From Escherichia phage NHEP10, in sequence record PQ511148.1: a stretch of 64,000 nt of DNA. One strand, 5' to 3'. Positions within the stretch are counted from its first letter, which is position 1. The number at the start of each line of letters is the position of its first letter. The position numbers and the translations under genes are program-made. The notes beneath the pieces are model-generated. The model searched no databases. It saw nothing but the letters and a program-made list of their open reading frames with translations, and had not been told where the DNA came from. This document shows, in pieces, positions 59,764 through 59,792 of the stretch.

Positions 59764-59792
59764 ATAATAACATGTTTAAAGCAAAAGTAAAC
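59764..59792 (-). promoter_or_regulatory. T4-type early promoter-like element
   Basis: Minus strand GTTTAC-N17-TATTAT; spacer contains TTTGCTTTA (MotA-box-like). Confidence 0.45.

Follow-up and report, generated by a model that had tools for sequence, protein, structure and literature searches.

The near-identical sequence block that recurs in the early region of Escherichia phage NHEP10 very probably represents the core (-15 to +3, with an extension to +6) of early promoters of the T-even type, read by the host sigma70 RNA polymerase in a Mosigvirus genome. The stretch of DNA analysed here, referred to as the window, comprises 64,000 nucleotides of this phage (sequence record PQ511148.1). 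Early promoters of this class are an already known kind of element, catalogued for both RB69 and T4, and the block is therefore real but ordinary. Less well documented is a further trait, the location of many of these early promoters inside conserved inverted repeats that can form hairpins.

The assignment of the genome to Mosigvirus, i.e. to the RB69-like T-even phages, comes from a megablast search with positions 57000-62000, in which the best match was Escherichia phage NHEP11 (98.8% identity), while Shigella phage phi25-307, classified as Straboviridae; Tevenvirinae; Mosigvirus (RB69 group), matched at 96%. The window spans an early/middle region that includes cef, motB, dda, srd, modA/B, gp43, gp55, the nrdC.x genes, rI and tk, and almost all of its genes are coded on the minus strand. 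Genome-wide tests were run on the assembled full NHEP11 genome of 167,994 bp. Late or phage-polymerase promoter types were dropped as candidates, given that the genome is that of a T-even relative with GTTTAC -35 boxes.

The block reads GATAGGTCTATAATA on the plus strand, that is TATTATAGACCTATC on the minus strand, and is present in five exact copies, at 16514, 24571, 58278, 59755 and 60033, with two inexact copies at 11286 (one mismatch) and 46374 (two mismatches). All seven share one orientation in the window. A chance origin was rejected, as only 0.17 copies are expected and none of 100 dinucleotide shuffles reached seven. The earlier note, made from the sequence alone, had listed near-identical blocks at six promoter-like elements, and this stands with five exact copies and the single-mismatch one, the copy at 46374 being a seventh that holds the core only. 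The positions given at that time (11295, 16522, 24580, 58287, 59764 and 60042) correspond to the ends of the -10 hexamers. The 15-mer TATTATAGACCTATC is identical in five copies, the copy at 11286 carrying TACTAT instead. In pairwise comparisons, identity begins between -16 and -9 and ends between +3 and +18, never extending 5' of -16; the longest identical stretches are 29 nt (58278 and 24571) and 27 nt (60033 and 11286, including the leader and the Shine-Dalgarno sequence). The spacers and the upstream parts are unrelated between copies, yet the -35/-10 spacing is kept exactly.

Table 1. Block copies and associated repeats in the window, with the predicted start positions and the parts of each promoter as read on the minus strand.
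Feature	Position	Strand	Elements	Context
Focal early promoter	59755..59792	-	GTTTAC 59787-59792, 17-nt spacer ending TGT, TATTAT 59764-59769, AGACCT, start A 59757, ATG 59725	5' of nrdC.10 homologue; orthologue of RB69 Pe:55018
Early promoter	60033..60071	-	GTGTAC, 18-nt spacer, TGT TATTAT AGACCT ATC; start A 60035, ATG 60013	5' of 72-aa ORF; orthologue of RB69 Pe:55296
Terminator-like stem-loop	60091..60117	-	GGGCCC stem-loop then T-run	Directly 5' of 60033 promoter
Early promoter	58278..58315	-	GTTTAC, 17-nt spacer, TGT TATTAT AGACCT ATC; start A 58280, ATG 58259	5' of nrdC.8 homologue; orthologue of RB69 Pe:53683
Inverted repeat	58281..58308	-	AGGTCTAT (58301-58308, spacer) / ATAGACCT (58281-58288, -8..-1)	Flanks -10 of 58278 promoter
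Early promoter	24571..24608	-	GTTTAC, 17-nt spacer, TGT TATTAT AGACCT ATC; start A 24573, ATG 24553	5' of 105-aa ORF adjoining dmd
14-bp inverted repeat	24558..24602	-	TTCTCCAGTAGTTG (24589-24602, spacer) / CAACTACTGGAGAA (24558-24571, +3..+16, including GGAG Shine-Dalgarno)	At 24571 promoter
Early promoter	16514..16551	-	GTGTAC, 17-nt spacer, TGA TATTAT AGACCT ATC; start A 16516, ATG 16473	5' of srd; orthologue of RB69 Pe:12088
Early promoter	11286..11324	-	ATGTAC, 18-nt spacer, TGA TACTAT AGACCT ATC; start A 11288, ATG 11266	5' of cef; orthologue of RB69 Pe:6863
Inverted repeat		-	GGTCTAT (11303-11309) / ATAGACC (11290-11296)	At 11286 promoter
Core-only copy	46374..46409	-	TGA TATAAT AGACCT ATG, without GTTTAC -35	5' of gp55 homologue
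Inverted repeat		-	ATAGGTCT (46402-46409) / AGACCTAT (46375-46382)	At 46374 copy

On the minus, coding strand the block sits within a complete promoter anatomy. An A-rich UP-like tract lies at about -44 to -39, with an A frequency of 0.5-0.7 at offsets -8 to -3 from the G of GTTTAC, and the 24 nt upstream contain 18-19 A+T in six copies. The -35 element, at -36 to -31, reads GTTTAC in three copies, GTGTAC in two and ATGTAC in one, and is lacking at 46374. It is followed by a sequence-variable spacer of 17-18 nt that ends in the TG(T/A) of an extended -10, by the hexamer TATTAT (T-12, A-11, T-7; TACTAT at 11286), and by the 6-nt discriminator AGACCT, with initiation predicted at the A of ATC in the six promoter copies. 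These six have leaders of 20-43 nt that are poor in G (AUCAAC / AUCAAA...) and lead through a GGAG-type Shine-Dalgarno sequence to an ATG. The block does span the -10 and the first transcribed bases, as had been proposed, since it comprises the extended -10, the hexamer, the discriminator and the ATC.

A consensus scanner independently called minus-strand -35/TG/-10 promoters at 58314..58287, 59791..59764 and 60070..60042, which in these three sites of the focal region are of the types TTTACn-16-TATTAT or TGTACA-17-TATTAT with the extended -10 TG present. A regular expression for -35 and -10 matched the window 35 times on the minus strand vs 6 times on the plus strand. The block is also enriched upstream of genes genome-wide, as the proposal of the earlier note entails: in the whole NHEP11 genome, all 14 matches with at most two mismatches are on the transcribed (minus) strand, 17-43 nt 5' of a Shine-Dalgarno sequence and an ATG, and only one of them, preceding a minus-strand ORF, falls in the late-gene half. 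With a position weight matrix built from sites selected on their -35 and -10, the scan of NHEP11 returned some 50 promoters that follow the pattern GTTTAC-N17/18-TGn-TAnnAT-AGnCCT-ATCAA(A/C), with few exceptions on the minus strand. A general antisense promoter was considered as well, given that TATAAT can be read on the plus strand of the block, but was rejected because the scanner found a -35-like hexamer in that direction at one copy only (58262-58291).

The copy at 46374 is of uncertain promoter class. The sequence TGCTTTA lies 23 nt 5' of its TATAAT -10, whereas the MotA box, (a/t)(a/t)(a/t)TGCTTtA, is placed 12 +/- 1 bp from the -10 (PMC2988021); a MotA-dependent middle promoter was thus rejected on account of the wrong spacing.

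The identity of the six elements as early promoters is further supported by orthology. Nolan et al. predicted 58 RB69 early promoters computationally in 2006 and presented a sequence logo, their paper describing GTTTAC at -36 to -31, an A-rich region at -40 to -44 and a preference for C at -3 to -1 (PMC1524935). Pe:53683, Pe:55018 and Pe:55296 map to the window copies at 58278, 59755 and 60033, and Pe:6863 and Pe:12088 to the orthologues of 11286 and 16514, in each case exact to the base; the position 0 of these authors is the A called +1 here, and the 3' end of Pe:53683 corresponds to window position 58280. Hence, the elements listed in the earlier note are early promoters with the full -35/TGn/-10 anatomy, five of them orthologous to RB69 predictions, and the idea itself was already published, with the RB69 orthologues and the logo, in 2006. 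In T4, orthologues of the early promoters precede nrdC.8, nrdC.10, motB.2, modB and other genes, and the annotated 'early promoter Pe133295' of the T4 record is the +1 of a T4 match whose -12 is at 133307. The early timing and the exact start sites of the window promoters are predicted from this orthology and from the consensus.

Conservation beyond the elements that sigma70 requires was examined in promoter sets picked on their -35 and -10 only, so that the discriminator and the start region are unbiased. Between -3 and +3, the information content per position ranges over 0.6-1.2 bits for the window, 0.5-0.9 for NHEP11 and 0.4-0.6 for T4. In the window (n=28) it amounts to 0.98, 0.91 and 1.17 bits at -3, -2 and -1 and to 0.69, 0.62 and 1.13 at +1, +2 and +3; the corresponding values are 0.86, 0.79, 0.83, 0.54, 0.60 and 0.94 in NHEP11 (n=56) and 0.57, 0.56, 0.56, 0.64, 0.42 and 0.61 in T4 (n=36). 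The commonest discriminators in NHEP11 are AGACCT (11 times), AGTCCT (7) and AGACTT (5), preceded by TGT or TGA, and those in T4 are ACAACT (7) and TACCCT (3), with AGACCT once, preceded by TGG. As T4 shows the same pattern from -3 to +3 with another favourite discriminator, the excess conservation is real, part of it being family-wide and part genome-specific. The sequence CT/ATC(AA), where the slash marks the start, is a family-wide feature common to three genera. The Dhakavirus loci of VR5 and IME341 likewise carry TAnnAT AGACCT ATC, and this discriminator is therefore widespread and not private to RB69-like phages.

Known polymerase preferences explain the TGn, the hexamer, the pyrimidine at -1 with the purine at +1 and possibly a G at -5, and leave C-3, C-2, T+2 and C+3 unexplained. 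As these four positions fall outside such preferences, the statement of the earlier note that the conservation exceeds what sigma70 recognition needs is fair, and for the same reason optimised contacts with RNA polymerase are undemonstrated as a cause for those extra positions that are the most conserved. A review of T4 transcription (PMC2988021) and the remark on 'C residues in the -3 to -1 region' in the RB69 paper (PMC1524935) agree with this excess. A start context favouring NAD capping was rejected, since CCT ATC A does not match the published motif for such starts (H R R A S W W at -3 to +4).

Genome-specificity was followed in 19 orthologous NHEP11/T4 promoter pairs, identified through their downstream proteins. 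The 18-nt core is identical to that of its orthologue at a mean of 12.05 of 18 positions, whereas 16.0 (NHEP11) or 15.4 (T4) positions agree with the best-matching non-orthologue of its own genome, and 14.5 or 14.2 with the best-matching promoter of the other genome. The mean core identity is nearly equal within and between genomes (10.8 vs 10.65), so that genome-specificity appears only in the closest matches. At nrdC.8, T4 and NHEP10 have conserved the upstream sequence, the -35, ATCAACTAC and the Shine-Dalgarno sequence, whereas the core differs, being TGG TACTAT ACAACT in T4 and TGT TATTAT AGACCT in NHEP10. The block also varies at other orthologous sites, with AGACTT at srd in RB69 and AAC at +1 to +3 of cef in NHEP11, and further NHEP11 promoters that fit the early -35/-10 pattern carry the discriminators CTTTCT, CATCCT and GAATCT. 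Several promoters with differing discriminators are orthologues of RB69 Pe predictions.

The reading of the block that we regard as the safest is that of a stacked sigma70 promoter with a fixed start at a pyrimidine (-1) and an A (+1). Such promoters would be read by the unmodified or Alt-modified host sigma70 RNA polymerase right after DNA injection, and the stacking of recognition elements in a fixed Y(-1)R(+1) start context may render them very strong and uniform in their start, to the point of outcompeting host promoters. The cause of the extra conservation may comprise two layers. The first would be a family-wide constraint on A-6, C-3, C-2, T-1, A+1, T+2 and C+3, common to T4 and Dhakavirus; the second, a genome-specific favourite at the positions under weaker constraint (AGACCT/AGTCCT/AGACTT in this phage, ACAACT/TACCCT in T4), and together they would account for the near-identity of the six copies. 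We tentatively put the second layer down mainly to homogenisation or convergence among the ~50 promoter copies of one genome and partly to spacer pairing. Recombination is a doubtful means of homogenisation with identical tracts of 15-29 nt; recombination patches in T4 are quoted at roughly 50 bp (PMC2839356).

It is quite improbable that the block, or its genome-specific part, is instead bound by a phage protein, either an agent of the shut-off of early promoters after 2-3 min or a booster of initiation with the Alt-modified polymerase. An operator of this kind would fit the conservation beyond the canonical sigma70 elements, the difference in favourite core between T4 and NHEP10 though both use E. 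coli RNA polymerase, and the ATAG..CTAT of the block, which on direct reading is near-palindromic at 8 of 10 positions. Moreover, the shut-off of early promoters is described as 'not completely understood' (PMC3014915) and no determinant of the Alt effect has been mapped (PMC2988021). However, no candidate protein was identified in this analysis, and the AGACCT ATC core occurs in Dhakavirus and once in T4 and hence is not lineage-private. Same-genome promoters with CTTTCT, CATCCT or GAATCT fit the same early pattern, and covariation with the spacer in the variable middle of the block favours pairing over read-out by a protein. The suggestion of a phage-specific initiation signal or factor-binding site was thus not borne out: the promoters show every hallmark of host sigma70, the invariant CT/ATC is common to phages of three genera, all of which rely on E. 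coli RNA polymerase, and the difference between AGACCT and ACAACT is equally explicable by homogenisation or by spacer pairing.

Only slightly less improbable is a repeat by descent, in which the copies would be a cassette recently duplicated or spread by recombination, of the PeSL or IP-locus type, with their identity due to copying and not to selection. The stretches of 29 and 27 nt shared by the two closest pairs agree with this, as do the best core matches, which are found within the genome and not with the orthologue, and the modular shuffling by PeSL cassettes that is on record for T4-like phages, the T4/PST pair among them (PMC2839356, PMC4122927). Nevertheless, identity ends at -16/-15 and the spacers and upstream parts are unrelated despite the exact -35/-10 spacing, the copies precede unrelated genes (cef, srd, nrdC.8, nrdC.10 and small ORFs), and the promoters occupy orthologous positions in RB69, T4 and Dhakavirus, which indicates that they are old and not recent insertions. 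A terminator scan of 57600-60400, which covers the copies at 58278, 59755 and 60033, detected an upstream terminator, the defining stem-loop of PeSL, solely at 60033 (60091-60117); with no G/C stem-loop terminator 5' of 58278 and 59755, membership of a PeSL cassette was rejected for them. In NHEP11, such a stem-loop precedes 5 of 56 early promoters.

The sigma70 promoter core described above is, in some of the copies, also part of an inverted repeat. The spacer is complementary to the segment from -8 to +2 in three copies, over 8 bp at 58278, 7 bp at 11286 and 8 bp at 46374. Of the short palindromes that the earlier note had attributed to several of the elements, those at these three of the seven copies were confirmed and those at 59755, 60033 and 16514 were not, while 24571 has a different repeat, of 14 bp. 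At 58278, an 11-pair stem appears in the minimum free energy (MFE) structure (z = -1.75); at 24571, the MFE is -21.5 kcal/mol (z = -5.04) and none of 200 shuffles folds as well. No spacer stem is found at 59755, 60033 or 16514, where folding is no better than in shuffled sequences (z between +0.5 and +0.95); at 16514 (z = +0.51), it is the AUG region, and not the spacer, that pairs with the -10 region in the MFE structure.

At the level of the T-even phages, ~40-50% of early promoters have a spacer complementary to their own downstream sequence, either the discriminator and +1 or the 5'UTR and Shine-Dalgarno sequence. When each spacer was paired with its own downstream region (own pair) or with those of the other promoters (cross pair), the mean duplex dG was -9.77 vs -7.13 in the window, -10.27 vs -7.37 in NHEP11 and -12.1 vs -7.48 in T4, and in each of the three none of 20000 permutations attained the own-pair value. 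Perfect stems of at least 7 bp are present in 29-33% of promoters vs 2-3% with shuffled spacers. The same promoters show no excess of spacer complementarity to the upstream flank; the pairing with downstream sequence is therefore not due to a general inverted-repeat bias of the spacer, and this explanation was rejected together with that of a templated-mutation bias. The stems fall into two classes, with a 3' arm that either ends by +8, comprising the discriminator and the start, or ends at +14 to +20 and covers the Shine-Dalgarno sequence.

Orthologous promoters keep a stem while its sequence, or even its partner, changes. At nrdC.8 the stem is AGGTCTAT/ATAGACCT in Mosigvirus, GTTCCTC/GGAGGAAC in T4-like phages and CTCCAGTAG/CTACTGGAG in Dhakavirus, and at mobD.2 it is TTGGTAGGA/TCCTACCAA vs AGTTGACAAGATTA/TAATCTTGTCAACT. 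At regB each lineage has a stem sequence of its own (CTAGTTG/CAACTAG, CTTGACTG/CAGTTAAG, CTTTATG/CATAAAG and CTGTAAG/CTTACAG), and the folding z-scores of the promoter lie between -3.4 and -5.4 in seven sequences, which represent about five lineages; a distant relative with 40% protein identity has no promoter stem. The regB orthologues were judged by folds of the individual sequences, as spacer and leader lengths differ by lineage and MAFFT alignment leaves the stems out of register. Among the non-Watson-Crick pairs within stems, 14 are G:T and 3 are A:C when read on the sense strand, a count that includes duplicated promoters, and this excess hints at RNA. With its 5' arm upstream of the start site, the hairpin is restricted to read-through RNA or single-stranded DNA. 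There is a weak trend for promoters that follow an intrinsic terminator to seldom carry a stem, with 2 of 13 such promoters against 32 of 79 others (Fisher p = 0.12; 0.053 in T4 alone).

These observations bear on another reading of the conservation, namely that part of the block (-8 to +3) is kept as the 3' arm of a hairpin in read-through transcripts, with the spacer as its 5' arm and with sister promoters using the leader and Shine-Dalgarno sequence as 3' arm instead. By blocking both translation and RegB cutting at GGAG, such a hairpin would silence or insulate the cistron in transcripts that read through, and the gene would then be expressed solely from its own early promoter. As an account of the block this is possible but rather unlikely. 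The own-pair dG values and the share of perfect stems, the lack of an upstream signal, the compensatory changes between orthologues of nrdC.8 and regB and the G:T excess all argue for it, and precedents exist both for GGAG sites protected from RegB by RNA structure and for promoter-inside-hairpin control, in T4 e, soc, 49 and I-TevI (PMC3014915). On the other hand, a stem is present in just three to four of the seven copies and the stemless ones at 59755, 60033 and 16514 carry an identical block, the invariant CT/ATC is kept whether it is paired or unpaired, and the discriminator stems leave the Shine-Dalgarno sequence uncovered. Furthermore, duplicated promoters contribute to the G:T excess and the inverse relation between terminator and stem is a trend only.

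A broader proposal can be advanced tentatively, with slightly more confidence than the preceding account and still at less than even chances, in which a large share of early promoters throughout the Tevenvirinae would be built into a hairpin that forms in read-through RNA only, as a general 'own-promoter-only' gate. Such a gate would confine immediate-early translation and RegB cleavage at GGAG to the transcripts begun at the gene's own promoter; the GGTCTAT/ATAGACC palindromes would be instances of it, and an RNA-pairing constraint would account for some of the block's excess conservation. No description of hairpins around T4 early promoters was found in the searchable full-text literature, outside of which lie the T4 papers of the 1980s and 90s, and priority is not claimed; the hairpin architecture is the sole part of this work that might be new.

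With regard to its use, the block is a reliable annotation marker for immediate-early transcription units in RB69-like phages, and it fixes predicted start sites to the base, which is useful for phage engineering and for the reading of RNA-seq data. It also restates an old question of T4 biology, that of early promoters conserved beyond the needs of sigma70 and shut off after 2-3 minutes, and narrows it through the presence of CT/ATC in three genera, the genome-specific discriminator and the co-variation of the spacer with the downstream sequence. If the hairpins are functional, they would explain how RegB is kept from GGAG sites in middle and late read-through RNAs, and would provide a simple rule by which genes in dense phage operons are kept tied to their own promoter.

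Among known systems, the T4 early promoters (Pe), reportedly described by Liebig and Rueger in 1989 and by Wilkens and Rueger in 1996, are closely alike. They share the A-rich UP tract, GTTTAC at -36 to -31, TGn, TAnnAT and a start A 7 nt after the -10, followed by the same start region (C-2 T-1 A+1 T+2 C+3 A A), a GGAG leader and the same early genes downstream. They differ in favouring TGG TACTAT ACAACT, where the promoters analysed here have TG(T/A) TATTAT/TATAGT AG(A/T)CCT, and in the spacing that follows GTTTAC, which is 18 nt in nearly all T4 promoters and 17 nt in many of those found here. Hinton (2010) termed the T4 promoters 'uber UP/-35/TGn/-10' with 'additional regions of consensus' (PMC2988021). 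As for RB69, the logo paper distinguishes no separate TATTATAGACCTATC sub-type, and its passages on early promoters mention neither the ATC at +1 to +3 nor a complementarity between spacer and downstream sequence (PMC1524935).

The PeSL cassettes of RB49/phi1, T4/PST and nt-1/KVP40, which combine an early promoter with a stem-loop (PMC2839356, PMC4122927), resemble the window in their repeated, conserved early-promoter motifs within hyperplastic regions rich in small ORFs, and a G/C stem-loop terminator lies immediately 5' of the 60033 promoter, as in these cassettes. However, the PeSL stem-loop is a terminator placed 5' of the AT-rich tract and the -35, whereas the repeats described here bracket the -10 and have no U-tail. 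Closer in geometry is the control of T4 e, soc, 49 and I-TevI, where the Shine-Dalgarno sequence pairs with sequence upstream of the proximal start and only transcripts begun at that start are open for ribosomes (PMC3014915). The same geometry is found at 24571 and at promoters of the regB, denV and motB.2 type, while at 58278, 11286 and 46374 the stem covers -8 to +2 and, unlike in those four genes, not the Shine-Dalgarno sequence. Moreover, e, soc, 49 and I-TevI use late promoters, and the internal promoter here is early. A late internal promoter delays the gene, whereas with an early one the same logic would restrict it to the immediate-early burst, so that the putative 'own-promoter-only' gate would be the mirror image of late-gene gating.

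In some 40-50% of T-even early promoters (window, NHEP11, T4 and further sequences), the spacer between the -35 and -10 elements is complementary to the promoter's own discriminator and +1 region or to its own leader and Shine-Dalgarno sequence, and no matching complementarity of the spacer to the upstream flank was found in these promoters. The spacer/downstream complementarity shows compensatory changes among Mosigvirus, Tequatrovirus and Dhakavirus orthologues. This complementarity likely corresponds to a hairpin in read-through RNA.

Orthologous copies of the block, the repeated -10-to-start core of the minus-strand early promoters, differ in sequence within the genus, so no single position is absolutely required. 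Positions +1 to +3 of the cef promoter read AAC in NHEP11 (154540) and ATC at 11286, and the srd promoter carries AGACTT in RB69 (12039-12051) and AGACCT at 16514. On the plus strand the block gives TATAAT, and a promoter scanner reported TTTACC-18-TATAAT on this strand (58262-58291), which would yield an antisense transcript, at the 58278 copy only. This match is probably due to chance, since the other copies lack a -35 in the plus direction.

The copy preceding the gp55 homologue lacks the GTTTAC box, and its TGCTTTA is present but mis-spaced. A GTTTAC lies ~60 nt further upstream.

Positions of the promoter-associated features in the window
Feature	Position	Strand
Core-only block copy (TGA TATAAT AGACCT ATG) before gp55 (late sigma) homologue	46374-46409	
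Second promoter sub-family	12800-12860	minus
Second promoter sub-family	13360-13415	minus
Second promoter sub-family	55610-55665	minus
Second promoter sub-family	56630-56685	minus
GGGCCC-GAA-GGCCC stem-loop with T-run, directly upstream of 60033 promoter	60091-60117	
Spacer complementarity	24558-24602	
Spacer complementarity	58281-58308	
Spacer complementarity	11290-11309	
Spacer complementarity	46375-46409	
Spacer complementarity	62400-62480	
TTTACC-18-TATAAT	58262-58291	plus

A second sub-family comprises four promoters. In three of them the spacer is exactly AACCAAGGATGGTTGGAG, and TATAAT comes next, with no TG; in the fourth (12852) the spacer is a close variant, ATCCAAGGATGGATGGAG. AACCA..TGGTT is contained within this spacer, a similar version of which, ATCCAAGGACGGATGGAG followed by TATAAT, is found at Dhakavirus loci. 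Among the three block copies scanned for terminators, 58278 and 59755 have no upstream stem-loop of the kind found at 60033, where the composite of terminator and promoter resembles PeSL, the early promoter and upstream stem-loop terminator cassette of T4-like phages.
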